DNA from: Eledone cirrhosa
Taxonomy: Eukaryota
Length of the DNA: 64,000 bases
Assembly (NCBI GenBank): GCA_964016885.1
Contig: OZ024754.1
Span: 8,928,001-8,992,000 of the forward strand
Reading direction: 5' to 3'
Shown: positions 8,621 to 57,297 of the stretch, in pieces
Layout of the letters: each line of letters begins with the position of its first letter
Numbering within the stretch: the first letter of the stretch is position 1
Program-made: the position numbers and the translations under genes
The notes under the pieces: model-generated
Seen by the model: only the letters and a program-made list of their open reading frames with translations
What the model was told of the DNA's origin: nothing
The model's database searches: none

Positions 8621-8740
8621 GTTTACAGCCATATCACGCTGAAAACATCGGTTCTCGTCCGATCACCGAAGTTAAGCAACGTCGAGCCTAATTAGTACTT
8701 AGATGGCTGACCGCTTGGGAAACCTAGGAGCTGTAAGCAT
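8621..8740 (+). rRNA. 5S rRNA-like sequence (divergent gene, pseudogene or 5S-SINE head)
   Basis: 120 nt; terminal stem gtttacagc/gctgtaagc; ctcgtccgatcaccgaagttaagca (box A region) and tagtacttagatggctgaccgcttgggaa (box C region). Confidence 0.85.
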
Positions 8741-12150: not shown

Positions 12151-12199
<49 letters not shown>

Positions 12200-12831
12200 T
12201 ACTTTGGGAGGGTCATGTTGCCAATAAGAAACACACGCACCAGTTGCTTTCACTTCAATTTATTATAATAAATTTATAAATTTAGGAATTTATAAATTTC
12301 TGGTTGGTTGGTTGGTTCCACAACCAGATGGTTGTTTATATATTGTCAAAGTTCTTTCGTCACACATTATTGGCAACATGACCCTCCCAAAGTATAACAA
12401 TATCGGTTTCAACACACGATTTCAGATAAAGAATCTTGCTAAACAAATTCAGAAACGAAATATATATATATATATATATATATAAAGTAATAATTGTTTC
12501 TACGTTAGGCACAAGGCCAGCAATTACCCAGTGCATTACTGGTACTTTATTTTATCGACCCCGTAAGGATGAAAGGCAAAGTTAACCTCGGCGGGATTTG
12601 AACTCAGAATGGCAAGGGCCATAACTCTATGCGTCAAAGCATGGCGTCCGACCCTCTACCGATACTGCCAATCCACCGCCCTTATATATAAAGTAATAAT
12701 AATAGATGTGAAGACTAAAGTCCAAAGAGGGCTCGATAAGGATAAATATATATCAAATATGTAAGAACCATAGAAGATCCCGTTAAGGGTGAAAGCAGCG
12801 ATTCTTTGCTTAAAATTAATCTGCTATTTTA

Positions 12832-15173: not shown

Positions 15174-15348
15174 TCTTTTCATTCGAAGAATATAAAATTC
15201 TTGAATATATATATATATATAACAAAGGAATTGTGGTAAGGAACCAGATGGACCATCACGCACCAGAGTACTCAATACTTAGGGTAGTAGATTGGGAAAT
15301 AGGAAAAAGTATATATATATATATCAATGATATATCATCATGGGATGA

Positions 15349-15418
15349 TATTTGTATCTGATGAGAACGCAAATATCATCCCATGATGATATTTGTTTGA
15401 AATGCGCATAATAAAATA
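15349..15418 (+). ncRNA. Minimal type I hammerhead ribozyme
   Basis: tatttgtat CTGATGA gaac-gcaaatatcatc-ccat-gatgatatttgt-tt GAAA tgcgca TA ataaaata. Confidence 0.75.
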
Positions 15419-15445
15419 CATGGAACTCTTTTAACCATCTTTTGA

Positions 15446-15476
<31 letters not shown>

Positions 15477-15625
15477 GAGGTTATATTTAATTTGTTGAGA
15501 TACAACAAGCTAAAAATATTTTTATAACTGATAAATTATTGGAGTAAATATACAAAAATTAACAAATTATTGGAGTAAATATACAATATATTAACAAATG
15601 GAAACTATATTTATAAAACCATATT

Positions 15626-15691
15626 TATTTTATTATACATATTTCAAGGGCCACCAAAGCAAACTATGGTGCGCTTTCATCAGATAAAATA
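15626..15691 (-). ncRNA. Minimal type I hammerhead ribozyme
   Basis: tattttat CTGATGA aag..ctt GAAA tatgta TA ataaaata; perfect 8-bp stem I. Confidence 0.7.
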
Positions 15692-15878
15692 TAATATAGG
15701 TTAGTTTTATAAATAAATATTGACATACCCTTAAAAAATGCAACCATTCTGGTTGGAATCTCCTATATATATATATTGTTACACATTGGGAGGGTCATCG
15801 AAGACCTCCTTCGGTCATGAATGATCATATGTATAAAATAAATATGGTTTTATAAATATAGTTTCCATTTGTTAATAT

Positions 15879-15924
<46 letters not shown>

Positions 15925-16432
15925 CATACGTCAAGACGGGCGGTCTCAAAAGTGAAACTAATTTTTGACAGTTACGTAGTGATTACTTTCACACACAATG
16001 TCATTATTTTTTTTAAAAACATACAATTGTGTACATGCATATATATATACATCTACAAATTCATAAAAATGTGTATGTATGCATAAAGATATATATACAT
16101 ACACACATATATATATACAGACACACAAACACATATATATACACACGAACACATATATACACACAAACATATATATACGTCTAAACCCATGCTTGCGTGG
16201 AAGATAGACGTTAAACGATGATGATGACACAAACATATATATATAAAAACACACATATATATATATATATATATACATACACACACACACATATATATAT
16301 ACACACATGTCAAAAATTAGTTTCACTTTTGAGACCGCCCGTCTTGACGTATGCCATATATATATATACCCACACATATATATATTATTCAAAATATTAA
16401 CAAATGAAGATATTCACATAATCAAAATATAT

Positions 16433-16495
16433 GCTTTATTATATATATTTCGAAGGTGTTTTTTGTTTTCCAGTACGTCCTCGTCAGATAAAATA
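16433..16495 (-). ncRNA. Minimal type I hammerhead ribozyme
   Basis: tattttat CTGACGA gga...ttc GAAA tatata TA ataaagc. Confidence 0.65.
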
Positions 16496-16682
16496 TATGA
16501 TTTGATATATGACATACCGCTACGGTCTTGATATTTCAATTCCAGTATTGGCAGTGATATATTTCATCAAATCTCAACATTTATATACCACAAATAATAT
16601 AAACTTTAAGAAGAAAAGGATGTGGAGCGAATTAGAGATATAAGAGAGTGTGTAAAGAAGAGGAGATATATATATATATATA

Positions 16683-16845
16683 TGATATCCCCGAAATATA
16701 TATAATGAAATAAATATGGTTTTATAAATATAGTTTTCCATTTATTTAATATTGTAAATATACTCCAAATATTTGTCGAGTGCTTTTATATCAGTTTATA
16801 AATATTTACTAGTTGTAACCCAACAATTTTAAATATAACTTTACA
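16683..16845 (+). mobile_element. Solo 3'-terminal fragment of the PLE at 50.8-56 kb, inserted in (TA)n
   Basis: Essentially identical to the reverse complement of ~50800-50960; begins inside HHR stem II. Confidence 0.75.
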
Positions 16846-17230
16846 TATATATATATATACGTATATATATAACGTTCTCTGTTTTTTTTATTTTGATGTA
16901 TATATTATATTTATTTACCCCATTTATTTACTACACCACATTTTTCATCTGTGTGATATTTTTGTAATGTTATTTATACAACCGGGAATAAAATAATTCT
17001 TACCCTAACCCTTATTATTCACTGCGAACCTGAACTGTTTCTTTTTCCTGTCTCACCATCTTCCATTCTTTCATCAATCTCTCGTCATTAATTTCCATCA
17101 ATTCCTGTCTCCTTTTCTATATTTTATATTTTCAAGGTATTTCAACAATTTTTATAATTTTTACTTTTCTTTCGTTAATTTATTCAGTTTTATATTTTAA
17201 ATATTTCTGAGTAATTTTCCGTCTAAATAT

Positions 17231-17265
<35 letters not shown>

Positions 17266-17266
<1 letters not shown>

Positions 17267-17740
17267 TCATCATCGTTTTACGTCCGGTTTTCCCTGCTTG
17301 CAAGGGTGGGACGGGTCCTATTAAGCATGGCATATCGCCATTCGTCACGGTCCTTTGTCAACTCCGTGAGCTTCAGCGCCCATGTTTTTCGTGGTCTTCC
17401 TTCTACTGGGAATGTTTGGCACTTCTTTACCCAGCTGTCATCCTCCATGCGCATCACGTGTCCAAACCATCGCAGTCTTCTCTTCCGCACACTACAGCCT
17501 ATCCCTCTTATACAAAGTTTCTCTCTCAACTCATCTATGCTTGGTCGTTCACGAACATGCTTGCTTCATTTCTCTCCAGCCGTCACATATCCTCCACAGT
17601 CGCTGCCCATGTCTCCACTACCATGCAGCATCGCGCATCTCACACAGACATCATATAACCGGCCTTTCGTACGCAAGGAGAAACCCTTCTTTGTCAACAG
17701 AGGAAGCAGCTCCATAAACTTCTTCCAATCCGTCCTTATT
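17266..17740 (-). mobile_element. RTE LINE 3' fragment, degraded
   Basis: RRLRWFGHVMRM..GRPRKTW; (ATG)n tail. Confidence 0.75.
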
Positions 17741-18904
17741 ATAGATACATATATATATATATATATGTAAATGAGACTATATACACACCTAAAACATTAT
17801 ATACATATATATATAAATGAGACTATATACATACCCAAAAGATTATATATATATGTATATTAATGAGACTACACATAACCTAAGATATATATATATATGA
17901 AAAGACTCAGGACATCGACGGCTGAGCTCCAGTTGTTTCAACCGTTAGATCTGGATGATCTAGTTGTCGAAACGGCCGGAGCTCAGCCGTCGATGTCCTG
18001 AGTCTTTTCATATTACCCACTCTACTACCCTAAGTATTGGTCCACCTAGTATCTTACCTCACCCTCTTTGTTATATATATGTGTGTATGTATATATAAAA
18101 ACAGCGATGAACTGGACTCCGCCTGGTGGTAAACGGAGGCGGGCTTGCCCAAGGATCACCTGGTGATGAATGTTCTGGAAGGACCCGATGGCAGTCAACA
18201 TCACCTGGCACGGTCTCGAAAAAGTTGCCGCTGATCTTGACCGTTGGCGAGTACTTACTGCTCGATGCGCCGAACGGCGCGGAAGAATCTAAGACTAAGA
18301 TATATATATATATATATATATTCTATACATAATAGACAATATATGACGCATCCACATCTGATATATACACTTGTAATATAAGAGTAGGTATAGGCTATAG
18401 CCGGTAAAACCGAAAGGGTCGCAACAGATATCGCTATAGTGTTTCACCAGCCCTTCCTCAATCATTCATAGATGTGTCTGTATGTAATAATTATTTTGTA
18501 TAATGTGTATTTAATAATATGTATGAGTAGATGTGTGTGTGTGTGTAATTCAGTAGATGTGTATGTAACTCAAATAACCTTCCCCCACCCTCGCTTTGGT
18601 CTCAAATAATCGTCACAACAAAAAGTACCCAGTCAACACTCTAAAGTGGTTATATAGTTGTCAACAAAAAGCACCCAGCAACACTATAAAGTTGTCCTGT
18701 AGGAGTCACGGTAAAAAGCACCCAGCATACACCGTAAATGTGGTTTGTGTTAGGAAGGACATCCGGCTGTGGAAAATAAGCCAGAAACAGTTCTGTGTGA
18801 GTAAGACATGGTCACCTGGCCTAGCATTGCCTTAAATGGGACAACCCAAGATAGCATGGAAAATGGCTGTTAAATGCAAAACGATGTATGTGTGTATGCA
18901 TATC

Positions 18905-20975: not shown

Positions 20976-21591
20976 TCTCTATATATATGTATATATACAT
21001 ATATAGATATGTATATATTTGTATATATCATTATCAACATCTTAGACAATTGAAATAGAAACTGGTACAGGGTAGAGAGGGCTCTTAGATCCAGTAAAAC
21101 AACCCCTCTAGTGGCACAACTAATACACCCAGTCTTTGCTAGAAAGTGGTTGATGAGGGGAAGAGCATCCAACCAGAAAAGAAAAAAAACCTCCAAAATT
21201 ATCTCATACTGTTTCTTTCTTATTTCAGAATATCAGATGACATTGGGATATATTGATTTTTAATCTTGAATATATCACCTATATTTATCATCATTTCAAG
21301 ACTAAACTTTTCATACGGAACTGATATAACATTCTTTATATTAGAATTACTGTGAAAAAATGTTTCAGAACTGTATTTATTGGAAAAATTTTGTTTCCTC
21401 ACCAGCCAAAATATTTACAAGATGATTTTGAATCTTAACTAAAATTTGATCACAAAGAAGTTTGCATCATCTTCAGATCTTGACTGAGATCACAGTTGGG
21501 GGAAATATAGCAGAAGAAATATCTTCAGGAATATAATATATAAAATAATACAAGAATAACATCTGTAAACTCGGTCACGGGAAGAAGAAAC

Positions 21592-22950
21592 ATGGAAAAT
21601 AAATTGAGTGGGAAGATTAAATGTGAAACATTGTCTGAAGATATTATTAATCCAGAAGACATGCCAAACGATAGAGGAGAGAAGCCATATCACTGTGATA
21701 TCTGTCGTAAATCATTCACTCAAAGTAGCACCTTAACTACACACAAACGTATACATACAGGTGAGAAACCATATGACTGTGATATCTGTGGTAAATCATT
21801 CTCTCGAAGTAATCATTTATCTAGACACAAACATATACATACAGGAGAGAAGCCATATCACTGTGATATCTGTGGTAAATCATTCTCAGAAAGTAGTGCA
21901 TTAAATTCTCACATACGTACCCACACAGGAGACAAGCCATATCACTGTGATTTCTGTGGTAAATCATTCTTTGTAAGTAGTACCTTAACTAGACATATAT
22001 GTACCCATACAGGTGAGCAATCAAACCACTGCAATATCTGTGGTAAATCATTCTATCGAAGTAGTAACTTAACTAGACACAAACGTACACATACAGGAGA
22101 GAAGCCGTATCACTGTGATATCTGTGGTAAATCATTCTCAGAAAGTAGTGCATTAATTTCTCACATACGTACCCATACAGGTGAGAAACCATACCACTGT
22201 GACATCTGTGGTAAATCATTCTCTAAATCAGATACATTAACTATTCACAAACGTATACATACAGGAGACAAGCCATATCACTGTGATATCTGTGGTAAAT
22301 CTTTCTCAGTAAGTGGTACATTAACTTCTCACATACGTACCCATACAGGTGAGAAACCATTCCACTGTGACATTTGTGGTAAATCATTCCTTGTCAGTAG
22401 TCACGTAACTAGACACAAACGTATTCATACAGGAGACAAGCCATATCACTGTGATATCTGTGGTAAATCATTCTCAGACAGTGGTGCATTAAATTCTCAC
22501 ATACGTACCCATACAGGTGAGAAACCATACCACTGTGATATCTGTGGTAAATCATTCTCTAAATCGGGTGATTTAACTAGTCACAAACGTATACATACAG
22601 GAGAGAAGCCATACCACTGTGACATCTGTGGTAAATCATTCTCTAAATCGGGTGATTTAACTAGTCACAAACGTATACATACAGGAGAGAAGCCATACCA
22701 CTGTGACATCTGTGGTAAATCATTCTCTGTATCGTGTGCTTTAACTATTCACAAACGTATACATACAGGAGAGAAGCCATACCACTGTGACATCTGTGGT
22801 AAATCATTCTCTGTATCGTGTGGTTTAACTAGTCACAAACGTATACATACAGGAAAAAAGCCATATCACTGTGATATCTGTGGTATATCATTCTCTGTAT
22901 CAAGTAGGTTAACTAGACACAAATATACCCATACAGGTGAGAAACCATAA
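21592..22950 (+). CDS. C2H2 zinc-finger protein 1 (452 aa, 15 fingers)
   Basis: 15 x 28-aa [12 protein letters not shown]...HTGEKP; strong acceptor tttctttcttatttcag ending at 21228 upstream of the ATG. Confidence 0.92.
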
Positions 22951-23790
22951 CAACATCATATCTCTTTATCTCAAAATGGTGAATTAATTAGACACAAATA
23001 CATTCATATCAGTGAGAAGCCATACTGTGATATTCAGGAGAAATTATTCTCTTTCATTGCTATATTAACTACACAAACATATTCATAAAGGAGAAAAGCC
23101 ATATCACTGTAATACTTGTGGTAAATCATTATCTATGGTGGATTGGCAGTATCGGTAGAGGGTCGGACGCCATGCTTTCCAGCATAGTTACGTCCCTTTA
23201 CGATCTGAGTTCAAATCCCGCCGAGGTTGACTTTGCCTTTCATCCTTACGGGGTCGATAAAATAAAGTGCCAGTAATGCACTGGGTAATTGCTGGCCTTG
23301 TGCCTAAAGTAGAAACAATTATCTATAAAAGCTAGATTAACTAGGATAAACATATACATACAGGAGAGAAACCATATCACTGTGATATCTGTGGGAAATC
23401 ATTCTCTGAAATTTGTCACTTCATAGACACTAACATTTACAGAAAAGCAACCATATCACTCTGGTGTCTGGAGTAAATCATTCTCTAATAATTGTTTCTG
23501 CTTTTAGCACAAGGCCATCAATTACCCAGTGCATTACTGATACTTTATTTTGTTAACCTCGGCAGAATTTGAAGAACTCAGATCATAAAGGGCCATAATA
23601 TTCTCTAATAATTGTGGCTTCATTACACACTGACATATTCAGGAGAGAACCATATCACTGTGATAAATCATTCTCTAAATGTTGTGGCTTCAGTAGACAC
23701 TGACATATACAGCAGAGGAACCACATCAGTGTGATGTCTGTGGTAAATGATTCTTTTGGACAGGTTACTTAATGCAAGACAATCAGACAA
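22951..23790 (+). pseudogene. Fossil zinc-finger repeats downstream of the stop (similar tails after ZNF2-4)
   Basis: Decayed ccatatcactgtgatatctgtgg..aaatcattctct units with indels. Confidence 0.75.
23137..23317 (+). mobile_element. Family-A SINE with 9-bp TSD, unit 1 only
   Basis: TSD attatctat at 23128-23136 and 23318-23326; empty site near 33303 in unit 2. Confidence 0.85.
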
Positions 23791-27543: not shown

Positions 27544-28226
27544 ATTTACTACACCACATTTTTCATCTGTGTGATATTTTTGTAATGTTATTTATACAAC
27601 CGGGAATAAAATAATTCTTACCCTAACCCTTATTATTCACTGCGAACCTGAACTGTTTCTATTTCCTGTCTCACCATCTTCCATTCTTTCATCAATCTCT
27701 CGTCATTAATTTCCATCAATTTCTGTCTCCTTTTCTATATTTTATATTTTCAAGGTATTTCAACAATTTTTATAATTTTTACGTTTCTTTCGTTAATTTA
27801 TTCAGTTTTATATTTAAAATATTTCTGAGTAACTTTTCCTGTATTTTCCGTCTAAATATTGTTTATATATATATATATAAATGAGGTATAGAGATTGTTT
27901 TAGCGAGAAGCTAATAGTATTCTATAACATATATGCGACTATAACGTCAAGATGGGAAAAGTAGTTAACGTAAGATTTAGGAAAAATAAAGATATATAGA
28001 TATATATAATTAGAAAGTGAACAACACAAAATATAACTACTCCATTACCAAAGCTTTCTGGATCCCAGATAATAATGATATACGTCTTTTCCTTCGGAAT
28101 TACCTAATACATATATATATATATATTTGTAGTAATGTTGCTTTGATGCGTCCATAGGTGGTATGCCGTTTGAGCACTATGCCCCTCGATGGAAAGCGAA
28201 GAATCAGTGAAACAATTTATTACGTA

Positions 28227-29149
28227 CTAGCAGTAAAGCCCGGCGTTGCTCGGGGTCGCTCAGTAGCTGTGTTAAAGTTACAATGTTAAGTTTCTTTCTT
28301 GACTTAAAAACTGTAGTGTCTACTGTGCAGACTTGCATGTGGTGTTTTTGATTAATATTCCCTCAACCAACAATATGCCTTATGAAGTTAAGAAAACAGC
28401 GATAACCCGAATGTTATAACCAAAGAGGATGCTGGGGATAGAAACTGCACTGGTTATTTATTAACAAAGATCGAAAATGTAAACACTGCAACGCAGAGAA
28501 AAACATTAGCGTAACCAAATTATCAGTTATGTCTGTCTGCACGCCTATATCACCTCTCTGCACGACTATCTGTCTGCACGCCTATATCACCTCTCTGCAC
28601 GCCTATATCACCTCTCTGCACGACTGTCTGTCTGCACGCCTATATCACCTCTCTGCACGACTATCTGTCTGCACGCGTATATCACCTCTCTGCACGACTG
28701 TCTGTCTGCACGCCTAACGACGAAATATTTGCTTGTTTTACGTAGTCTTTAAATAGACTTGTTTTCAAGTAAAAATATTGTTTTAAAATGCTTTTAAATG
28801 GAAATGAAGCAAAACGGAAGCTTAGTGTTCGAACTGATGAATTTTGCAGGTCAATATTTTGCTGGCTCGACAACTGTTCGTGAGAAAGCCAGCGTAATTT
28901 TTTACGTAAGACGCTCAATGTAAACAGAACAAAGGGAAATAACTGATAACTTACGCTCAAAAATCGATACATTATATTCGATTTCGTCACATAGGGTGGG
29001 TCAATTTGAAATTTTTTTTTTCCGATGTCTTCGCTAGGGCTCAATGTACAAGTATAGCAATTTCGGTGCAATTCCGTGAGAGATTCTGAGAGGAGATGTG
29101 TGCCAAAAATCGATAGACAGACAGACAACCACAGTTTTATATATATAGA
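28227..29149 (-). mobile_element. Non-autonomous Helitron, 923 bp, unit 1 only; contains a ~36-bp minisatellite at 28531-28715
   Basis: Minus strand 5'-TCtatatatataaa; 3' hairpin cccgagcaacgccggg then CTAG; inserted between A and T without TSD; empty sites at 41950 and 56173. Confidence 0.9.
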
Positions 29150-29830
29150 TTACAATTGTTTTTCCAGCGAAAAGCTCCAGGTGTGATCTATTCGCCAGAG
29201 AAACAATTGTAATACGTAATTGTGTTCCGATACATCACTGATTCTTCGTTTTCCATATATAAATATATATATATAAGTTTATCACAGTTCAATCGGGGGT
29301 AACCACAGTAAGTAAGGTACTCAATACAAAGCAGAGTATAAATATTTAATATAGAAAAGGCTTCTACAGGACTAGAACCGTTTCCTTCGGGAAAAATTAT
29401 CAGGAAGCCCTATATATATATATGAAAAGTGAAGGCGCGTGGCTGAGTAGTTAGTGAATTGGACTCTCAATCGTAAGGTTGTGAGTTCGATTCCCGGACC
29501 GAGCTATGCGTTATGTCCTTGGGCAAGACACTGTATTTCACGTTGCTCCTTCTACCTGGGGTTGCGACCGATAGAAAGTATTAGCAATTGGAAAGACCAG
29601 TATATGAAAAGAGTCAGGGCTCCGGCCGTTTTAACAGCTATATGCGAAACGGCCGGAGCTCAGCCGTCGATGTCCTGACTATTTTCATATTACCCACTCT
29701 ACTACCCAAAGTATTGGTAGACCTGGTATCTTACCTCACCCTCTTTGTTATATAAATATATATATCCAGCGAACCTCAACCGTTAAGACTGTCTTTATGC
29801 GGGTATGTCAATATTTATAAAACAAATTTG

Positions 29831-29896
29831 TATTTTATCTAATGAAAGCGCACCATAATTTGCCTTGGTTGCCCTTGAAATATATATAATAAAATA
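29831..29896 (+). ncRNA. Hammerhead motif with G5A core change (CTAATGA); copy at 42632-42697
   Basis: tattttat CTAATGA aag..ctt GAAA tatata TA ataaaata, inside a PLE-end remnant at ~29800-30010. Confidence 0.6.
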
Positions 29897-31763
29897 ATTA
29901 TGGTATAATTAATATATTGAATATTTACTCCACTAACTTGTTGAGTGCTTTATATCAGTTATAAAAATGTTTAAGCTTGTTGAATCCCAACAAATTAAAT
30001 ATAACCTCTGCATATATATATATATGTGTGTGTGTGTATTTATAAATATATATATAAGTTAGACAATATATATAATAGACAATATATTACACCTCCACAT
30101 CTGATATATACGAATAGGCTATGTAGCCGGTAAAACCAATAGGGTCGCAACACACATCGCTATAGTGTTTCACCAGCCCTTCCTCAATCATTCATAGATG
30201 TGTGTGTATGTAATAATTATTTTGTATAATGTGTCTATAAATATATATCAGTAGATGTGTATGTATCACAAATATTCATCCCCCATCCTTGCTTTGGTCT
30301 CAATCTTCCCCCACCCTCGCTTATTTATTTTTCAGATTTTTCTCACCGCCTCCCCGTACTTAATACACCCATCCTCTGTTTATTACATTTTTATTTTAAG
30401 TGGTAGCATTTCGGCGACAATTTTCTTTAGACATTAAAAAACATTATACATGACAAAAAAAAAGTACATTATTAGAAATCCCATATGTTATAAAATAAAT
30501 AAGATGGGTTGGGGCTCTCACTATGTAAACTAAATGACAGATTCTGGTTTTCTATCTCTGGTGAAATTTTGAAAAATTATCGATTTTCCACCCACCCCTT
30601 GCTTATTTCTGTTTCAATGTATTTAATATGACAAAAAACACGTGGTCATGTAGGTGTCACACCAAAATGCACACAGTTCACACTCTAAAGTGGTTATGTA
30701 GGTGTCACAACAAAAAGCACCCATGCTTCACTGTAAAGTTGTCCTGTAGGAGTCACGGTAAAAAGCACCCAGCATACACCGTAAATGTGGTTTGTGTTAG
30801 GAAGGACATCCGGCCATGGAAAAGAAGCCAGAAACAGTTCTGTGTGAGTTAGACATGGTCACCTGGCCTAGCATTGCCTTAAATGGGACAACCCGTCTAA
30901 TCCAGGCTAACATGGAAAATGGCCATTAAATGATAACTATATGTTTTTGTGTGTGTGTAAAGCCCTGCAAATATACTTCCCACTAATTGTGTCTACAGGA
31001 ATAACACAAGTCATGTTAGTGGGGTGCCTAGAGTAGCCATGTGTGAGGATCCCTTGACTGTTATCAAGCAATTGCACAGCATTTTCCCCTTCCAGGTAGA
31101 AAGAACTGTTACTCAAGGAACTGTCAAGTTACACATCTCAGGTCTCAGACAATTACTATGTTGGAAAGTCCTATAAGAATGAATTTTGGGGTAAAGACTA
31201 TAGGGAAGACCTCCCAAGAGATAAAAGGCTAAAATATATATAGAGCATGCTGGAATACCACTGCTCACATTGGAGAGTATTGCTCTGGACAGGAAAGATA
31301 TCTAGTTTACCAATATAGAAATATAAAATTTCCACTGTTAAATCTATCTCTGCTTCTTAAGTATTCTCTATTATCTCATACCGTTTCTTTCTTATTTCAG
31401 AATATCAGATGACATTGGGATAAATTAATTTTTAATCTTGAATATATCACCTATATTTATCATCATTTCAAGACTAAACTTTTCATACGGAACTGATATA
31501 ACATTGTTTATATTAGAATTACTGTGAAAAATTTCTTCAGAACTGTGTTTATCGGAAAAATTTTGTTTCCTCACCAGCCAAAATATTTACAAGATGATTT
31601 TGAATCTTAACTAAAGTTGGATCACAAAGAAGTTTGCATCATCTTCAGATCTTGACTGAGATCACAGTTGGGGGAAATATAGCAGAAGAAATATCTTCAG
31701 GAATATAATATATAAAATAATACAAGAATAACATCTGTAAATTCAGTCAAGGGAAGAAGAAAC

Positions 31764-33125
31764 ATGGAAAATAAATTGAGTGAGAAGAAGATTAAATGTG
31801 AAACATTGTCTGAAGATATTACTAATCCAGAAGACATGCCAAACGATAAAATAAGGAAGTCATATCACTGCGATATCTGTGGTAAATCATTCACTCAAAG
31901 TAGTACCTTAACTAGACACAAACGTATACATACAGGAGAGAAACCATATCACTGTGATATCTGTGGTAAATCATTCTCAGTAAGTGATAAATTAACTTCT
32001 CACAAATATACACATACAGGAGAGAAGCCATATCACTGTGATATCTGTGGTAAATCATTCGCTAAATCGGATGCATTAACTATTCACAAACGTATACATA
32101 CAGGAGACAAGCCACATCACTGTGATATCTGTGGTAAATCTTTCTCAGTAAGTGGTACATTAACTTCTCACATGCGTAGCCATACAGGTGAGAAACCATA
32201 CCACTGTGTCATCTGTGGTAAATCATTCTCTCAAAGTGGTCACTTAAGTACACACAAACGTATACATACAGGAGACAAGCCACATCACTGTGGTATCTGT
32301 GGTAAATCTTTCTCAGTAAGTGCTACATTAAATTCTCACATACATACCCATACAGGTCAAAAACCATACCACTGTGACATCTGTGGTAAATCATTCTCTA
32401 TATCGGGTAGTTTAACTATTCACAAACATAAACATACAGGAGACAAGCCATATCTCTGTGATATCTGTGGTAAATCATTCTCAGTAAGTGATAAATTAAC
32501 TTCTCACATGCGTAGCCATACAGGTGAGAAACCATACCACTGTGATATCTGTGGTAAATCATTCTCATTAAATGGTACATTAAATTCTCACATGCATACC
32601 CATACAGGTCAGAAACCATACCACTGTGACATCTGTGGTAAATCATTCTCTATATCGGGTAGTTTAACTATTCACAAACGTACACATACAGGAGATAAGC
32701 CATATCACTGTGATATCTGTGGTAAATCGTTCTCTGTATCGAGTGGTTTAACTAGTCACAAACGTATACATACAGGAGAGAAGCCATATCACTGTGATAT
32801 CTGTGGTAAATCATTCTCTAAATCGTGTGCTTTAACTAGTCACAAACGTATACATACAGGAGAGAAGCCATACCACTGTGACATCTGTGGTAAATCATTC
32901 TCTGTATCATGTGCTTTAACTATTCACAAACGTATACATACAGGAGAGAAGCCATACCACTGTGACATCTGTGGTAAATCATTCTCTGTATCGTGTGCTT
33001 TAACTAGTCACAAACGTATACATACAGGAAAAAAGCCATATCACTGTGATATCTGTGGTATATCATTCTCTGTATCAAGTAGGTTAACTAGACACAAATA
33101 TACCCATACAGGAGAGAAACCATAA
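31764..33125 (+). CDS. C2H2 zinc-finger protein 2 (453 aa, 15 fingers)
   Basis: 33-aa leader plus 15 x 28 aa. Confidence 0.92.
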
Positions 33126-34295
33126 CAACATCATATCTCTTTATATCAAAATGGTGAATTAATTAGACACAAATACATTCATAACAGTGAGAAGCCATAC
33201 TGTGATATTCAGGAGAAATTATTCTCTTTCATTGCTATATTAACTACACAAACATATTCATAAAGGAGAAAAGCCATATCACTGTAATACTTGTGGTAAA
33301 TCATTATCTATAAAAGGATAAACATATACATACAGGAGAGAAACCATATCACTGTGATATCTGTGGGAAATCATTCTCTGAAATTTGTCACTTCATAGAC
33401 ACTAACATTTACAGAAAAGCAACCATATCACTCTGGTGTCTGGAGTAAATCATTCTCTAATAATTGTTTCTGCTTTTAGCACAAGGCCATCATTTACCCA
33501 GTGCATTACTGATATTTTATTTTGTTAACCTCGGCAGAATTTGAACTCAGATCATAAAGGGCCATAATATTCTCTAATAATTGGGGCTTCATTACACACT
33601 GACATATTCAGGAGAGAACCATATCACTGTGATAAATCATTCTCTAAATGTTGTGGCTTCAGTAGACACTGACATATACAGGAGAGGAACCACATCAGTG
33701 TGATGTCTGTGGTAAATGATTCTTTTGGACAGGTTACTTAATGCAAGACAATCAGACAAGATAAAAACCATATCACTCACCCAAAATAGTGCCACCAATG
33801 TTGTAAGTGTTCTGAATAAAACTTGTTTATTCAGAAATTATTCTCCTTTAATTTTATTTGTAAAAGTTGTAACCAACACTAGTTGTGACAAAACTGCATG
33901 GTACAGAATTTACAAACGCTATATATATATGAGTGTATATAGAAATTATTATCCTTGAATATGATAGTATCTGTATGTGTGTATAATTATGTGTATCTGT
34001 GTGTACGTATGTGTTCTTATATACATGTGTGCATATCTGCAGTGTCTGTTCTAGCTCTCAGAGTACAAATCCCACTGAGGTGAAGTTGCTTCTATATTTT
34101 GAGATCCATAAATGAAATACCAATGAAATACTGGGGTTGATTCTTCTTTGTCATTGTCTGTCTATTCTTCTCTCTTTCTATATATATATCATCATGATCA
34201 ACGTCTACCTTCCACACTGATATGGGTTAGCTGGGAACTGTCCCACTTGAGGAAAAAATTGGTCGGGTGACCATGTCTCGCTTGTATAGAGCTAT

Positions 34296-40800: not shown

Positions 40801-43800
40801 GCAAATAGCCAGTGCATTACTGGTACTTTATTTTATCGACCCCGTAAGGATGAAAGGCAAAGTTAACCTTGGTGGGATTTGAACTCATAATGGCAAGGGC
40901 CGTAACTCTTTGCATCAAAGCATGGCGTCCGAGCCTCTACCGATACTGCCAATCCACCGCCCTTGTATATATATAAATAGATAATCCCGTTCATTTCTCT
41001 TATAATATATATACATATATTTAACGTTCTCTTTTTTTTTTTTTTTTTTATTTCAAGTAACTTACAAGGGATATTCTATGATTGACTAGAATCACTTCCA
41101 GTGTGTGTATTTATTTACAACATTGATATTCTACACCACATTCGTCATCTATGTGACACTTGTAATGTTATTTTTACAACCAGGAATAAAATTGTTCTTG
41201 AGATATTCACTGCGAACCTGTACTTTCTCTATTTCTTGTTCGGACTTGGTATATATATATAATATTTATTTACTACACCACATTTTTCATCTGTGTGATA
41301 TTTTTGTAATGTTATTTATACAACCGGGAATAAAATAATTCTTACCCTAACCCTTATTATTCACTGCGAACCTGAACTGTTTCTATTTCCTGTCTCACCA
41401 TCTTCCATTCTTTCATCAATCTCTCGTCATTAATTTCCATCAATTCCTGTCTCCTTTTCTATATTTTATATTTTCAAGGTATTTCAACAATTTTTATAAT
41501 TCTTACGTTTCTTTCGTTAATTTATTCAGTTTTATATTTAAAATATTTCTGAGTAACATTTCCTGTATTTTCCGTCTAAATATTGTTTACATATATATAT
41601 AAATGAGGTATAGAGATTGTTTTAGCGAGAAGCTAATAGTATTCTATAACATATATGCGACTATAACGTCAAGATGGGAGAAGTAGTTAACGTAAGATTT
41701 AGGAAAAATAAAGATATATAGATATATATAATTAGAAAGTGAACAACACAAAATATAACTACTCCATTACCAAAGCTTTCTGGATCCCAGATAATAATGA
41801 TATACGTCTTTTCCTTCGGAATTACCTAATACATATATATATATATATATTTGTAGTAATGTTGCTTTGATGCGTCCATAGGTGGTATGCCGTTTGAGCA
41901 CTATGCCCCTAGATGGAAAACGAAGAATCAGTGAATCAATTTATTACGTATTACAATTGTTTTTCCAGCGAAAAGCTCCAGGTGTGATCTATTCGCCAGA
42001 GAAACAATTGTAATACGTAATTGTGTTCCGATACATCACTGATTCTTCGTTTTCCATATATAAATATATATATATAAGTTTATCACAGTTCAATCGGGGG
42101 TAACCACAGTAAGTAAGGTACTCAATACAAAGCAGAGTATAAATATTTAATATAGAAAAGGCTTCTACAGGACTAGAACCGTTTCCTTCGGGAAAAATTA
42201 TCAGGAAGCCCTATATATATATATGAAAAGTGAAGGCGCGTGGCTGAGTAGTTAGTGAATTGGACTCTCAATCGTAAGGTTGTGAGTTCGATTCCCGGAC
42301 CGAGCTATGCGTTATGTCCTTGGGCAAGACACTGTATTTCACGTTGCTCCTTCTACCTGGGGTTGCGACCGATAGAAAGTATTAGCAATTGGAAAGACCA
42401 GTATATGAAAAGAGTCAGGGCTCCGGCCGTTTTAACAGCTATATGCGAAACGGCCGGAGCTCAGCCGTCGATGTCCTGACTATTTTCATATTACCCACTC
42501 TACTACCCAAAGTATTGGTAGACCTGGTATCTTACCTCACCCTCTTTGTTATATAAATATATATATCCAGCGAACCTCAACCGTTAAGACTGTCTTTATG
42601 CGGGTATGTCAATATTTATAAAACAAATTTGTATTTTATCTAATGAAAGCGCACCATAATTTGCCTTGGTTGCCCTTGAAATATATATAATAAAATAATT
42701 ATGGTATAATTAATATATTGAATATTTACTCCACTAACTTGTTGAGTGCTTTATATCAGTTATAAAAATGTTTAAGCTTGTTGAATCCCAACAAATTAAA
42801 TATAACCTCTGCATATATATATATATATATGTGTGTGTGTGTATTTATAAATATATATATAAGTTAGACAATATATATAATAGACAATATATTACACCTC
42901 CACATCTGATATATACGAATAGGCTATGTAGCCGGTAAAACCAATAGGGTCGCAACACACATCGCTATAGTGTTTCACCAGCCCTTCCTCAATCATTCAT
43001 AGATGTGTGTGTATGTAATAATTATTTTGTATAATGTGTCTATAAATATATATCAGTAGATGTGTATGTATCACAAATATTCATCCCCCATCCTTGCTTT
43101 GGTCTCAATTAATCTTCCCCCACCCTCGCTTATTTATTTTTCAGATTTTTCTCACCGCCTCCCCGTACTTAATACACCCATCCTCTGTTTATTAAATTTT
43201 TATTTTAAGTGGTAGCATTTCGGCGACAATTTTCTTTAGACATTAAAAAACATTATACATGACAAAAAAAAAGTACATTATTAGAAATCCCATATGTTAT
43301 AAAATAAATAAGATGGGTTGGGGCTCTCACTATGTAAACTAAATGACAGATTCTGGTTTTCTATCTCTGGTGAAATTTTGAAAAATTATCGATTTTCCAC
43401 CCACCCCTTGCTTATTTCTGTTTCAATGTATTTAATATGACAAAAAACACGTGGTCATGTAGGTGTCACACCAAAATGCACACAGTTCACACTCTAAAGT
43501 GGTTATGTAGGTGTCACAACAAAAAGCACCCATGCTTCACTGTAAAGTTGTCCTGTAGGAGTCACGGTAAAAAGCACCCAGCATACACCGTAAATGTGGT
43601 TTGTGTTAGGAAGGACATCCGGCCATGGAAAAGAAGCCAGAAACAGTTCTGTGTGAGTAAGACATGGTCACCTGGCCTAGCATTGCCTTAAATGGGACAA
43701 CCCGTCTAATCCAGGCTAACATGGAAAATGGCCATTAAATGATAACTATATGTTTTTGTGTGTGTGTAAAGACCTGCAAATAAACTTCCCACTAATTGTG

Positions 43801-44575
43801 TCTACAGGAATAACACAAGTCATGTTAGTGGGGTGCCTAGAGTAACCATGTGTGAGGATCCCTTGACTGTTATCAAGCAATTGCACAGCATTTTTCCCTT
43901 CTAAGTGGAAAGAACTGTTACTCAAGGAACTGTCAAGTTACACATCTCAGGTCTCAGACAATTACTATGTTGGAAAGTCCTATAAGAATGAATTTTTGGG
44001 GTAAAGACTATAGGGTAGACCTCCCAAGAGATAGAAGGGTAAAATATATATAGAGCATGCTGGAATACCACTGCTCACATTGGAGAGTATTGCTCTGGAC
44101 AGGAAAGATATCTACAGTTTACCAATATAGAAATATAAAATTTCCACTGTTAAATCTATCGCTGCTTCTTAAGTATTCTCTATTATCTCATACTGTTTCT
44201 TTCTTATTTCAGAATATCAGATGACATTGGGATAAATTAATTTTTAATCTTGAATATATCACCTATATTTATCATCATTTCAAGACTAAACTTTTCATAA
44301 GGAACTGATATAACATTGTTTATATTAGAATTACTGTGAAAAATTTCTTCAGAACTGTGTTTATCGGAAAAATTTTGTTTCCTCACCAGCCAAAATATTT
44401 ACAAGATGATTTTGAATCTTAACTAAAGTTGGATCACAAAGAAGTTTGCATCATCTTCAGATCTTGACTGAGATCACAGTTGGGGGAAATATAGCAGAAG
44501 AAATATCTTCAGGAATATAATATATAAAATAATACAAGAATAACATCTGTAAATTCAGTCAAGGGAAGAAGAAAC

Positions 44576-46348
44576 ATGGAAAATAAATTGAGTGAGAAGA
44601 AGATTAAATGTGAAACATTGTCTGAAGATATTACTAATCCAGAAGACATGGCAAACGATAAAATAAGGAAGTCATATCACTGCGATATCTGTGGTAAATC
44701 ATTCACTCAAAGTAGTACCTTAACTAGACACAAACGTATACATACAGGAGAGAAACCATATCACTGTGATATCTGTGGTAAATCATTTTCAGTAAGTGAT
44801 AAATTGACTTCTCACAAATATACACATACAGGAGAGAAGCCATATCACTGTGATATCTGTGGTAAATCATTCGCTAAATCGGATGCATTAACTATTCACA
44901 AACGTATACATACAGGAGACAAGCCACATCACTGTGATATCTGTGGTAAATCTTTCTCAGTAAGTGGTACATTAACTTCTCACATGCGTAGCCATACAGG
45001 TGAGAAACCATACCACTGTGTCATCTGTGGTAAATCATTCTCTCAAAGTGGTCACTTAAGTACACACAAACGTATACATACAGGAGACAAGCCACATCAC
45101 TGTGATATCTGTGGTAAATCTTTCTCAGTAAGTGCTACATTAAATTCTCACATACATACCCATACAGGTCAGAAACCATACCACTGTGACATCTGTGGTA
45201 AATCATTCTCTATATCGGGTAGTTTAACTATTCACAAACGTAAACATACAGGAGACAAGCCATATCACTGTGATATCTGTGGTAAATCATTCTCAGTAAG
45301 TGATAAATTAACTTCTCACATGCGTAGCCATACAGGTGAGAAACCATACCACTGTGATATCTGTGGTAAATCATTCTCATTAAGTGGTACATTAAATTCT
45401 CACATGCATACCCATACAGGTCAGAAACCATACCACTGTGACATCTGTGGTAAATCATTCTCTATATCGGGTAGTTTAACTATTCACAAACGTACACATA
45501 CAGGAGACAAGCCATATCACTGTGATATCTGTGGTAAATCGTTCTCTGTATCGAGTGGTTTAACTAGTCACAAACGTATACATACAGGAAAGAAGCCATA
45601 TCACTGTGATATCTGTGGTAAATCATTCTCTGTATCGTGTGCTTTAACTAGTCACAAACGTATACATACAGGAGAGAAGCCATACCACTGTGACATCTGT
45701 GATAAATCATTCTCTGTATCGTGTGGTTTAACTAGTCACAAACGTATACATACAGGAGACAAGCCATATCACTGTGATATCTGTGGTAAATCATTCTCTA
45801 ATTTAACTAGTCACAAACGTATACATACAGGAGAGAAGCCATACCACTGTGACATCTGTGGTAAATCATTCTCTGTATCGTGTGGTTTAACTAGTCACAA
45901 ACGTATACATACAGGAGACAAGCCATATCACTGTGATATCTGTGGTAAATCATTCTCTAAATCGGGTGATTTAACTAGTCACAAACGTATACATACAGGA
46001 GAGAAGCCATATCACTGTGATATCTGTGGTAAATCATTCTCTAAATCGTGTGCTTTAACTAGTCACAAACGTATACATACAGGAGAGAAGCCATACCACT
46101 GTGACATCTGTGGTAAATCATTCTCTGTATCATGTGCTTTAACTATTCACAAACGTATACATACAGGAGAGAAGCCATACCACTGTGACATCTGTGGTAA
46201 ATCATTCTCTGTATCGTGTGGTTTAACTAGTCACAAACGTATACATACAGGAAAAAAGCCATATCACTGTGATATCTGTGGTATATCATTCTCTGTATCA
46301 AGTAGGTTAACTAGACACAAATATACCCATACAGGTGAGAAACCATAA
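44576..46348 (+). CDS. C2H2 zinc-finger protein 3 (590 aa, 20 fingers, one with a 3-aa deletion)
   Basis: First ~11 fingers nearly identical to ZNF2. Confidence 0.92.
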
Positions 46349-50100: not shown

Positions 50101-50493
50101 TTCTTGAGATATTCACTGCGAACCTGTACTTTCTCTATTTCTTGTTCGGACTTGGTGTATATATATATATATATATAATATTTATTTACTACACCACATT
50201 TTTCATCTGTGTGATATTTTTGTAATGTTATTTATACAACCGGGAATAAAATAATTCTTACCCTAAACCTTATTATTCACTGCGAACCTGATCTGTTTCT
50301 ATTTCCTGTCTCACCATCTTCCATTCTTTCATCAATCTCTCGTCATTAATTTTTATCAATTCCTGTCTCCTTTTCTATATTTTCAAGGTATTTCAAATTT
50401 TTTTATAATTTTTACGTTTCTTTCGTTAATTTATTCAGTTTTATATTTAAAATATTTCTGAGTAACTTTTCCTGTATTTTCCGTCTAAATATT

Positions 50494-50538
<45 letters not shown>

Positions 50539-50624
50539 AACAAGTAAGACCCCGACGGTTGAGCTCAAGCCGTTTCGACGGCTAATTCTGGACTTTGAGC
50601 TCAGCCGTCGGGGTCTTACTTGTT

Positions 50625-50667
<43 letters not shown>

Positions 50668-50930
50668 AATATTTAGACGGAAAATACAAAATATAACTAT
50701 TCCATTACCAAAGGTTTCTGGATCCCAGATAATAATGATATACGTCTTTTCCTTCGGAATTACCTAATACACATATATATATATATATATATATATATGT
50801 ATAGTTATATTTAAAATTGTTGGGTTACAACTAGTAAATATTTATAAACTGATATAAAAGCACTCGACAAATATTTGGAGTATATTTACAATATTAAATA
50901 AATGGAAAACTATATTTATAAAACCATATT

Positions 50931-52457: not shown

Positions 52458-52858
52458 TGGAATATATATATATATAGAGAGAGAGAGAGGAAATAGAGAT
52501 AGATACATATATATATATAGAAAATTAGGTAGTGGGAGGTCATTTTGAGTAAGTGTATCAATGATACATTTATTTATTTATTTATTTATTTATTTAGCTC
52601 AAGTATTAATGTAAGGGAGAAATATAGAGAGATATAGAGAGAGACAAAAAAATTTAAAAATAGCCAGACATATTCGAGGCGTAGAAAACCCTATGTTTTA
52701 ATGTATTAGTATTTATAAAACTTACACTATATTGTAAATATCAGTATTCCTGAATGAAACAAGTATCCATAATGTGTGAAAATTCATTATCTTATGTTTA
52801 GTTTTAAAAAATTCATATGTTTATGTGACAGCTACAAACATCAATGTGAATCCAACTC

Positions 52859-54437
52859 ATTCTTGACAGGGTGATACAGCAAATTAAGAACTTGGATTGT
52901 GTATCTAACCTGAGCTTGTGGAAGGGAACTGGAGAGGTTGTTGAGTGGCTTAGGCAAATTAAATATAACAATAATAATAGGTTTATTCAACTTGATATAG
53001 CTAACTATTATTCTTCTATTACCCCTAGTCTACTAAATAAGGCACTAAATTACGCATTCAAACATACGGACCTAACTAGCAAAGAAATGCATATTATATT
53101 ATCGGCTAGGAAAACTTTGATAGAATTTAATGACAAATTATGGACCAGAGCAGATAGAGATAGCAATTTTGACATAACTATGGGATCTTCCGACTCAGCT
53201 CAGGTAACTGACCTTGTGGGCTTATTTTTAATCAATTCGCTACATAGGAAAATACCTGGTACTACCGGAGGTTTATATAGGGATGACATGCTTTTACTTA
53301 TTAATAATAATAACCCTGAACTAAATAGAAAATGTAAACAAATTACAAAATTTTTTAATTACTTTAACCTTAAAATAGAAATTGAGAACAACCATAGAAT
53401 AGTCAATTTCCTAGATATAACATTAAATCTCAACACATGTCTCCACTATCCTTTTCACAAGTTGAATGAAAACTTAAACTATGTCAACTTTAACTCTAAC
53501 CACCCCAGATCTGTCAAAAACACTATAGTAAACTCAGTCCAAAAACGTATCTCTAGGATCTCGTCGAATAGAAAGATTTTTGACGAAAAGGCCCAGTACT
53601 ATAATGATGCACTAGCTAGGGCAGGGTATGCTGATAAGATTGTGTACATAGATAATGATAGACAAACTAAACAAAGTAACAACTTTTTTAATTACGGCAA
53701 CAACATTAACAACTATAATAGAAAGCATTACAATAATTCCAAAGGACAAAAAAGAAATAGAACTAGGAACATAATTTGGTTTGCCCCCCCCTTTCTCACT
53801 AAACATTAAAACCCACATTGCTAAATTATTTTTCAAAGCTCTTGATAATCGCTTCCCTAGAACACATAGGTATCACTCAATCTTCAATAGGCATACAATT
53901 AAATTAACCTACTCATCCACCAAAAATTTAGCACAAAATATTAATAGAATAAATAATAGGAACTTAAAACCTACTGATAATAGCATAAACAATATACAAG
54001 TTAACAAATGTAACTGTAGAGATAGATCTAAATGTCCGTTAAATAACAACTGCTTAGTTAAAAATATAGTATACAATTGTAATGTTAATACTGACTCTAA
54101 TTCTTTTAACTATGTCGGTTCCACATCGACGGAATTTAAACTTCGCTATAATAACCACAAGAATTCTTTCACAGATCCAAATAAAAAATCTTCAACGGCA
54201 CTATCAGGCGTACTCTGGCAACTTAAGCTAGATAACGTTAGATATTCGACGGCTTGGAATATAGTCTCAAGAGGGATTCCTTTTAATTCATCCTCTGAGA
54301 CATGTGACCTCTGCGCAGAGGAGATATTCTTTATACTAAAATCTAAAAATTCCCTTAACCTACGGACAAATTTATTCAGTTGTTGCAAACATAGATTAAA
54401 CTCAACGTTTAAATATAAATTTAAATTTAAAATGTAG
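52859..54437 (+). CDS. PLE polyprotein remnant: RT plus C-terminal GIY-YIG endonuclease, one frameshift at the C8 run near 53784-53791
   Basis: FIQLDIANYYSSI, MGSSDSAQ, GGLYRDD, NFLDI, SNHP; WFAPPF/SLNIKT; CNCRDRSKCPLNNNC; NIVY..NYVGST..FKLRYNNH; CDLC..E..LN..CKH. Confidence 0.88.
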
Positions 54438-55944
54438 TATATTTAATTTGATTTATATTTATATGAGAACTAGCCGATAAATTTTTGATTCCTAAATCTT
54501 TGATTCCCTCTTTTTACTCTTTTTTTTTTTTATTGTTTATTTTATTTTTTTTATTTTTATCTAAACATTCCTCATGAAAAATTAAGCTACCCTAAAAGCC
54601 GATGCTCCAAATTTTTTGAATTAACCTTACACTAGATAAACTTCTATATTAAATATAGGAACATATGTAGACATAATTGGACATCATAATCTTTTTGAGA
54701 TGTTCTTTGCTAGATGTGATTTGATAGATAATTTTTGGCTTTGTCTTGTAATGAACTTGGCAATATATTGTCAATTAACTTTGAAGGGTTGTTCTTTGTG
54801 GTTTATCTTTATTTTTATTTTTATTTTTATTCTTTTAGTATTGTAGTATTCTATATTTTTTTATTTTTATTTTTATTTTATTTTATTTTTAATATTTTTA
54901 ATATCTTTAATATGTAAATTTTTAATACGTAATATTTTTTAATACGTAGTATTTTTAATATGCAATATTTTTATTATGTAATATTCTTTCGTAATATTTT
55001 TTCAGTTTTCTATTCTATATTTTTACTTATTATTATTATTATGTAATATTCTTTCGTAATATTTTTTCAGTTTTCTATTCTATATTTTTACTTATTATTA
55101 TTATTATTATTGTTATCTTTTTATTTTTAGTTTTGTTTATAATATAATATATATTTTTGATTAGTATATTGAAATCTGCTCTCTATTTCTGCTTGATTGA
55201 TAATCTTGTAGAGTAATCGCAAGAATAATAATACGCTCAAATTTTTATACCACATTGAGAATGTTTTCCGGTAACTTAGAGTTTGCAGAGTGAATCAGTT
55301 GGATTCACATTGATGTTTGTAGCTGTCACATAAACATATGAATTTTTTAAAACTAAACATAAGATAATGAATTTTCACACATTATGGATACTTGTTTCAT
55401 TCAGGAATACTGATATTTACAATATAGTGTAAGTTTTATAAATACTAATACATTAAAACATAGGGTTTTCTACGCCTCGAATATGTCTGGCTATTTTTAA
55501 ATTTTTTTTTTCTCTCTCTATATCTCTCTATATATCTCCCTTACATTAATACTTGAGCTAAATAAATAAATAAATAAATAAATAAATGTATCATTGATAC
55601 ACTTACTCAAAATGACCTCCCACTACCTAATTTTCTATATATATATATGTATCTATCTCTATTTCCTCTCTCTCTATATATATATATATATCTTTCTGTT
55701 TCTTTACATGAAGCTCTTCGCTTTATCTATTTTTCCATCTCTCTATTTTGTTCCATGCATTTCTTCTTTTTCTTTTTCTTCTTTTTCTTCCTTTTCTTCG
55801 TTTTGTCTTTCTTTCTTTTTTCTCTCTTTTTTTTTTTTTCTCTCTTTCTCTCTGTATTTTCACTGCTAGCGTAAACCTCTTCAAATGAAGTCGATGTTTA
55901 TTACGGTATGTCGAATATATTTATCTATAAAACTGTTTATATTG

Positions 55945-56010
55945 TATTTTGTCTGATGAAGGCATAGCATATTGTTAATATGATATCCCCGAAATATATA
56001 TAATGAAATA
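55945..56010 (+). ncRNA. Minimal type I hammerhead ribozyme near the PLE 3' end, sense to the ORF
   Basis: tattttgt CTGATGA aggcatag-catatt-gtt-aatatg-atatcccc GAAA tatata TA atgaaata. Confidence 0.72.
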
Positions 56011-57297
56011 AATATGGTTTTATAAATATAGTTTTCCATTTATTTAATATTGTATATATATATATATATATTTGTAATAAGGTTGCTTTGATGCGTCCAT
56101 AGGCGGTATGCCGTTTGAGCACTCTATGCCCCTCGATGGAAAACGAAGAATCAGTGAAACAATTTATTACGTATTACAATTGTTTTTCCAGCGAAAAGCT
56201 CCAGGTGTGATCTATTCGCCAGAGAAACAATTGTAATACGTAATTGTGTTCCGATACATCACTGATTCTTCGTTGTCCTGTAGGAGTCACGGTAAAAAGC
56301 ACCCAGCATACACCGTAAATGTGGTTTGTGTTAGGAAGGACATCCGGCCATGAAAAAGAAGCCAGAAACAGTTCTGTGTGAGTAAGACATGGTCACCTGG
56401 CCTAGCATTGCCTTAAATGGGACAACCCGTCTAATCCAGGCTAACATGGAAAATGGCTATTAAATGATAACTATATGTTTTTGTGTGTGTGTAAAGCCCT
56501 GCAAATATACTTCCCACTAATTGTGTCTACAGGAATAACACAAGTCATGTTAGTGGGGTGCCTAGAGTAGCCATGTGTGAGTATCCCTTGACTGTTATCA
56601 AGCAATTGCACAGCATTTTCCCCTTCCAGGTAGAAAGAACTGTTACTCAAGGAACTGTCAAGTTACACATCTCAGGTCTCAGACAATTACTATGTTGGAA
56701 AGTCCTATAAGAATGAATTTTGGGGTAAAGACTATCGGGAAGACCTCCCAAGAGATAAAAGGGTAAAATATATATAGAGCATGCTGGAATACCACTGCTC
56801 ACATTGGAGAGTATTGCTCTGGACAGGAAAGATATCTAGTTTACCAATATAGAAATATAAAATTTCCACTGTTAAATCTATCTCTGCTTCTTAAGTATTC
56901 TCTATTATCTCATACCGTTTCTTTCTTATTTCAGAATATCAGATGACATTGGGATAAATTAATTTTTAATCTTGAATACATCACCTATATTTATCATCAT
57001 TTCAAGACTAAACTTTTCATACGGAACTGATATAACATTGTTTATATTAGAATTACTGTGAAAAATTTCTTCAGAACTGTGTTTATCGGAAAAATTTCGT
57101 TTCCTCACCAGCCTAAATATTTACAAGATGATTTTGAATCTTAACTAAAATTTGATCACAAAGAAGTTTGCATCATCTTCAGATCTTGACTGAGATCACA
57201 GTTGGGGGAAATATAGCAGAAGAAATATCTTCAGGAATATAATATATAAAATAATACAAGAATAACATCTGTAAATTCAGTCAAGGGAAGAAGAAAC

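Follow-up and report, generated by a model that had tools for sequence, protein, structure and literature searches.

Short fold-back elements in (TA)n tracts, as found at five sites in a 64,000-nt stretch of Eledone cirrhosa DNA (contig OZ024754.1, positions 8,928,001 to 8,992,000; here called the window), raise the question whether they derive from a DNA transposon or from reverse transcription. The window consists of AT-rich animal DNA with pieces of RTE-type LINEs and many (TA)n tracts. An earlier note had explained the hairpins as minimal insertions of Penelope-like elements (PLEs) in which reverse transcription repeatedly switched strand at or near the hammerhead ribozyme. Our analysis agrees on the retro origin and on inner ends lying near a hammerhead-like 3' half, but "repeatedly" applies to three insertions, not five. 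It is likely that the hairpins are insertions of PLEs that target (TA)n, that they were dead on arrival and extremely truncated at the 5' end, and that their cDNA probably folded back near the hammerhead hairpins.

Insertions and families at the five sites

Sequence comparison resolved the five sites into three insertions of two families, here named E and F. The sites at 29604 and 42405 lie inside a segmental duplication found by self-comparison (4357 bp, 96%; 29149-33458 versus 41950-46294). They hold E2 (29600..29752, plus strand), a paralog of the hairpin at 17898 (E1) with a left arm shorter by 14 nt and a shortened centre, and its segmental duplicate E2b (42401..42553, plus strand, offset 12801). 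The region around E1 is collinear with both, as 17968-18088, 18301-18540, 18612-18898, and 21198-23136 correspond to 29645, 30041, 30656, and 31370. E1 shares its tail with the two others (6 differences per 105 nt), all three carry common minority letters, compared to reads of an organism A (see below), at 17993, 17994, 18010, and 18059, and a 19-nt deletion in the tail is common to them. Their downstream flanks align once differing inserts in the TA tracts are set aside. These shared private letters, the tail deletion, and the aligned flanks indicate that E1, E2, and E2b are one insertion. The sites at 29604 and 42405 are thus of the same family as 17898, as had been proposed, but as segmental duplicates. 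Their left end abuts a SINE-like piece, with TATA alone in between.

A 24-nt core of the E family occurs five times in the window and was found in none of 100 shuffles. It is also present in the hairpin at 50537 (E3; 50537..50626, minus strand), which has the majority letters at 17993-17994 and lies within (TA)20/(TA)19 with both arms at the short end. Core match and paralog comparison place this hairpin in the E family, although 50536-50628 had been taken for a family of its own. A solo E-family tail was detected by self-comparison between (TA)n tracts at 15218..15307 (minus strand). Adjoining it, at 15332-15392, is a perfect inverted repeat (23 bp, loop of 15 nt) that is unrelated to the E arms.

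The hairpin at 41914 had been described as of the same design; it does have a one-sided tail, but self-comparison assigned it to the second family, F. Here, the hairpin (41913-42057) carries a tail of ~63 nt on its left (41850..42057 in total, minus strand), and paralogs are located at 56138 (56071-56278) and at 28171/29149 (28126-28229/29149-29259). The latter is split by a ~920-bp insertion with GTCT-type repeats (28230-29148), which, we presume, resembles Helentron/DINE-1-like elements. The adjacency to (TA)n was borne out: the E and F sites lie in TA tracts, while 5.7% of window positions are within 3 nt of a TA run, and (AT)n ends are also seen in the reads.

Anatomy and fold of the E1 hairpin

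For E1, the arms quoted for 17898-18010 proved to be exact over 33 bp, including a right arm that reads GAAA-CGGC/GCCG-TC. The hairpin is real, but it is larger and more asymmetric than the extent of 17898..18012 given for it, since a tail of ~60 nt follows the right arm and pairing runs to the centre (57 pairs, 5-nt loop). A (TA)n tract at the left junction (17885..17898) is followed by the inverted arm (17895..17951, minus strand), which ends there at a "short" end without tail, and by a 5-nt palindrome turn (17952..17956) with GATC on either side. The direct arm (17957..18013, plus strand), at the start of which family homology in reads begins, leads into the one-sided tail (18014..18072, plus strand) that ends at (TA)n. 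E1 lacks 19 nt in the tail that the solo tail and most reads have, and folding predicts a small hairpin within it. The fold of 17895-18075 reached -95 kcal/mol (z -14.66), a stability equaled by 0 of 200 shuffles.

Mismatches between the E1 arms are unevenly distributed, with 0 in 36 outer and 7 in 21 inner pairs (Fisher p=0.0004). At position 18002, the two arms of E1 both have G, but C is found in the two arms of E2 and in most reads of organism A. This pattern and the uneven mismatches suggest, at the level of sequence, an arm-to-arm conversion after the duplication.

An asymmetric inverted repeat combined with a tail hairpin at T-rich sites, as reported for second-type Helitrons (PMC8969392), could also point to Helentron-type non-autonomous elements, whose subterminal inverted repeats are asymmetrical and which carry a hairpin at the 3' end. 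We regard this origin as extremely improbable, as the long arms seen here run up to the centre, solo tails exist, E3 is tailless, and the architecture matches that of neighbouring hammerhead-bearing Penelope-like ends.

Hammerhead content

A hammerhead-like 3' half consisting of GAAA, helix III, and a UH triplet is present in E1, F, and E3. In E1, a motif scan located it at 17969..17991 (plus strand), with a 4-bp helix III and a 9-nt loop. Its form with at least 4 bp was found in 0.4% of 5000 arm shuffles and 20 of 1185 window tiles. The palindromic form in F occurred in 2.2% of 5000 shuffles and 61/1185 tiles, and the E3 half in 9.1% of 5000 shuffles and 36/1185 tiles. The 3' half exceeds chance expectation in E1, yet it is half a motif, and the motif by itself is weak in E3 (50537) and F (41914). 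A window scan for complete type I motifs, which detected five hammerheads (55953+, 50988-, 16487-, 15683-, and 13210-), found neither a CUGANGA box nor the 5' strand of helix I in E and F. In their present form, E and F are thus no hammerhead ribozymes, and, lacking the catalytic 5' box, the copies would not be expected to self-cleave. The proposal that the antisense arm sequesters the ribozyme is not supported, as the copies contain no complete ribozyme.

Several candidates for the missing part were rejected. The letters ctggatga do occur in the E1 loop, as had been pointed out, but they span the palindrome turn and have no helix I partner, which excludes them as a CUGANGA box or a decayed core. 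A type II permutation, with the core after the cleavage site, was discarded by eye, because the following letters are not CUGANGA and form no helix I. Seven upstream scans yielded two boxes with one mismatch, one of them from a misplaced anchor, and neither had a helix I by eye. At gathering level, Rfam reported no hammerhead for the window, and at E<=10 none for 15400-18200; the latter region contains two complete minimal hammerheads, so this blank is uninformative. Rfam matches of E1 to mir-1199 and mir-1305 were far below threshold and were dismissed. By eye, the letters that reads have just upstream could form a helix II with its loop at the centre of the fold-back.

Minimal type I hammerheads of metazoan PLEs, as described in PMC4209133, have a C before GAAA and a palindromic helix III/loop 3. 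E has both and F shares the palindrome, whereas the CUGANGA box and the helix I 5' strand of the published motifs are absent from E and F. The same source ascribes paired opposite-strand motifs 100-700 bp apart to truncated PLEs. In the Hydra clade (PMC8557442 File S2), helix III has 4 bp, begins with A, and ends in UH, and F reads like the tabulated cases.

Copies in public reads

Four of seven listed read runs were mapped on 17940-18092 at 80% likeness, three of them from organism A (X1 and X2, from one sample, and X5) and one from organism B (X4). They comprise three contig sets from two organisms and one set of RAD raw reads, which are locus-biased. X1 contains 0.33 of the sampled words, and organism A may differ from the species of the window. 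The E family is present in high copy number, with 6437, 6890, 351, and 13956 mapped records in the four runs, which include subfamilies with private letters; summed contig depth was not taken as copy number. Scans for exact patterns in metagenome, prokaryote genome, and viral contigs gave 0 loci.

The right ends of the reads fall into two classes. Among the best-supported rows, a short end with loose (AT)n directly behind 18013 was found in at least 132, 147, and 16 contigs and at least 1198 reads, and a tailed end continuing behind 18037-18039, with ends at 18037-18080, in at least 244, 265, and 73 contigs and at least 6303 reads. Depth in X1 was 2.8 times higher at the start of the tail (1.42 million at 18012-18017) than in the core (0.51 million at 17976-17981), as 5' truncation predicts.

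In the raw reads, a depth of 3559 at 17958-17963 plus 2938 reads starting 8 letters before 17966 compares with 8132 at 17970-17975. This indicates, for the locus-biased RAD data, that some 80% of copies reach 11 nt or more past GAAA in the upstream direction. The arms therefore do not begin at GAAA itself. Upstream of 17957, unlike loose ends sharing their last 8 letters were observed in 235, 254, and 54 contigs and 2821 reads. Over 30 letters, their agreement was 0.42, 0.42, and 0.45 in the contigs and 0.79 in the RAD reads, and none of the four 30-letter consensuses contained CUGANGA.

Joints to the opposite strand were found in 11, 11, and 3 contigs and 70 reads. Perfect fold-backs at the GATC of 17957-17960 (joints 17957/17961) account for 4, 1, and 1 contigs and 36 reads from 2 starts, and occur in both organisms, while the remaining joints are probably due to alignment clipping. 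Joints at 17966, 17995-17998, and 18004-18007 were rejected as variable breakpoints, as they lie just behind mismatch clusters. Visible fold-backs are thus a minority beside the unlike upstream ends, although contigs collapse palindromes.

These data would also be compatible with E being a non-autonomous element of ~150 nt in its own right, with its own 5' end just upstream of 17957, a Penelope-like protein mobilising it in trans and its hammerhead-derived hairpin fixing the place of the snap-back. Thousands of records, an agreement that in all three contig sets, which represent two organisms, is lost ~8 letters before 17957, 11 of 11 rows of opposite-strand joints with one side at 17950-17958, and the subfamilies with private letters all speak for it. 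The fixed side of the joints is, however, where the reference stops resembling the family and therefore partly forced; RAD reads share upstream sequence, and core copies are outnumbered by tail-only copies. Non-autonomous PLEs would moreover be nothing new, given MRC1 (PMC8557442) and the Heliconius case (PMC6685494). We consider this reading unlikely. Its furthest form, a self-standing element of ~150 nt in tens of thousands of copies that lost the catalytic box and kept the hairpins of helices II and III, which would act as a programmed signal to stop and snap back, strikes us as similarly doubtful. If true, a dead ribozyme fold would set the turning point of Penelope cDNA and produce MITE-like palindromes without transposase.

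Penelope-like ends in the same window

Penelope-like ends with complete hammerheads served as controls for the favoured reading, truncated PLE insertion. The tailed end at 15475..15890 (minus strand), identified by motif scan and by mapping of its family (A), has a complete minimal hammerhead with its core at 15683. An inverted short-end copy is joined to it head to head (15827-15890, plus strand), with its start 9 nt before the cleavage site; a further family A copy starts at -25. With TA-only matches removed from the mapping, family A ends were found to carry complete hammerheads, to lie in (TA)n, and to stop either ~50 nt or 132-159 nt past the cleavage site. Only two of ~7 independent 5' ends (-9 and -25) fall inside the hammerhead 3' half. 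At 54-244, a tail-only piece and an upstream piece of family A stand in opposite orientation with no overlap, the region of the hammerhead core being skipped.

A 5'-truncated PLE with reverse transcriptase (RT) and GIY-YIG domains, which belongs to neither E nor F, was located at 52461..56052 (plus strand) by its ORFs and a motif scan. It shows the CxCX5C, CxxC, and CxH motifs that PMC8557442 (section 11) gives for the Hydra clade, and has a hammerhead at 55953-56002. Its piece 52461-52862 (~400 bp) is inverted, joined to the RT frame at a microhomology of 8 of 9 nt, and ends at an internal TA tract. Pfam did not recognise its ORFs, and a protein search with it gave 2 relatives among 85 candidates. 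A frameshift is present near 53790. The hairpins and these Penelope-like ends thus form a continuum within the window, with E and F at its short extreme.

An insertion with empty paralogous sites

E3 is missing from the paralogous TA tracts at 27864 and 41592. Comparison with these paralogs revealed, at 50665..50688 (minus strand), that 24 bp of the left flank of E3 (50473-50496) are repeated in inverted orientation, and the filled site is joined by a 3-nt microhomology after a loss of ~146 bp relative to both paralogs. The whole 216-bp region 50473-50688 is palindromic, including 24 bp of flank from another repeat. This scar fits a synthesis that folded back, traversed first the element and then its TA target, reached the flank, and was rejoined there. 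With its empty paralogs, E3 provides a clean single case favouring fold-back at the DNA level; a scar of this kind could also result from subsequent host repair.

The latter leads to a further explanation, in which an ordinary truncated retroelement end would have supplied the direct arm and tail, and the fragility of (TA)n would have led host repair, or a template switch during replication, to create the inverted arm afterwards. The E3 palindrome indeed reaches into non-element flank and comes with a deletion, and the change of 18002 in both E1 arms since the duplication as well as the arm deletions in E2 demonstrate that remodelling at the DNA level occurs. We nevertheless find a later, host-made arm decidedly unlikely, since the same centre recurs in independent records, the inverted arms stop at the element-defined short end in E1, F, and the 15475 control, and the empty paralogs lack E3 in its entirety.

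The E3 site likewise bears on the question whether the hairpins are MITEs with long terminal inverted repeats from a TA-targeting DNA transposon of the Tc1/mariner type. Like MITEs, they are short, hairpin-shaped, and high in copy number; their arms end in TA, and E3 is symmetrical. Fixed inverted ends with a target site duplication would be the mark of such a transposon, but E3 displays an inverted flank and the ~146-bp loss instead of a simple TA duplication (one site), and the ends are unequal in E1, E2, and F. In addition, tails are one-sided or occur solo, and the interior varies, with inner junctions differing among E1, E2, and E3 and no internal spacer common to copies. On the sequence evidence, the tail and the empty site largely refute a MITE origin, which we hold to be very improbable.

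Proposed mechanism and relation to described systems

Taken together, the one-sided tail, the two classes of right ends, the solo tail, the differing inner junctions, the empty site, and the controls with full hammerheads support a retro (Penelope-like) origin. According to the proposed mechanism, the endonuclease of the element would nick (TA)n, and reverse transcription would start at either of two sites near the RNA end, resulting in a tailed or a short end. After 50-130 nt, the RT would cross helix III and GAAA and halt in the region of helix II. The 3' end of the cDNA could then serve as its own primer, by way of a short palindrome or of microhomology, and copy back, or a second nick could prime a second cDNA. 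The product would be joined to the target via TA microhomology, and copies would later be spread by segmental duplication and remodelled.

This anatomy is on record for PLEs, and an unrecognised class is therefore not supported. Insertions of EN+ PLEs consist of an inverted 5'-truncated copy and a one-sided tail (PMC8557442, Fig. 2), palindromes at inverted junctions have been argued to reflect self-priming of cDNA (PMC3846280), and for an anole element in vitro, two RT start sites bound the tail and hammerhead cleavage was dispensable (PMC11167929). Hydra clade elements, including the Octopus family Hydra-1_Obim, target (TA)n and have a hammerhead near the 3' end (PMC8557442, section 11). The head-to-head inverted copy (E1, E3, and F), the tail at one end, the two 3' end classes, the junction palindrome, and the AT-rich target are shared with EN+ Penelope-like insertions. 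At 90-210 bp, however, E and F are far shorter and have no complete hammerhead, and a sequence link to the ORF of a parent was not found. The helix III loop of 9 nt in E versus 1-3 nt in the tabulated Hydra clade entries (PMC8557442 File S2) and tails of 60-80 nt versus the 30-40 nt reported for EN+ insertions count against the favoured reading, as do the small number of fold-back joints in the reads and the few control 5' ends inside the hammerhead 3' half. No parent element was found, as the window held no upstream match and scans of the contig collections were empty, and probes with 13- to 14-letter motifs had no match among the Naiad/Chlamys/Hydra consensuses of Craig et al. With no parent and no CUGANGA upstream, the hammerhead identity rests on half a motif.

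Two described systems offer partial parallels. In snap-back 5' junctions of R2 cDNA, an antisense copy of cDNA or target precedes the 5' junction (PMC11371274), similar to the flank copy at E3; that work concerns engineered R2 in human cells and not PLEs, while a fold-back is here inferred from genomic structure alone. Non-LTR retrozymes, as summarised in bioRxiv 10.64898/2026.07.22.740005, are non-coding, hammerhead-related, and PLE-derived, as the elements in question probably are, but they form head-to-tail tandem units with complete hammerheads, whereas E and F are head to head with half a motif. Membership among the retrozymes was therefore excluded, as E and F are not built of tandem units that carry a complete hammerhead of type I apiece.

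Our literature search retrieved no paper on the E family, nor one that treats fold-back PLE ends of such small size in cephalopods. In Octopus vulgaris, PLEs amount to 6.83% of the genome in 190 families (PMC13282606), and the repeat library of that work may already contain the E family. We conclude that the E family is real, of high copy number, and probably uncatalogued, and that it most probably represents a known insertion pattern in miniature.

Genomic setting and implications

The hairpins are located among four C2H2 zinc-finger ORFs that are duplicated in tandem, become progressively longer (21544-22950, 31716-33125, 44528-46348, and 57250-60721 in the ORF list), and have a zinc-finger style suggestive of an octopus, and the duplication units have acquired different young insertions in their TA tracts. 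Within this gene cluster, the hairpins seed palindromes and small rearrangements. In genome annotation, they can be mistaken for MITEs or microRNA precursors. As very short insertions in high copy number, they are usable data on how the inverted 5' ends of PLEs arise, by snap-back or by second priming, and on a possible role of the hammerhead fold in setting the turning point.

Two further features were noted in the window. A (TA)n-flanked unit at 12196-12458 has perfect inverted arms of 32 bp, a 139-nt spacer, and a one-sided extension of ~60 nt, and was negative in the hammerhead scan. The other is a lone 5S rRNA sequence of full length at 8621-8739 (99.8 bits), either a gene or a copy derived from 5S.
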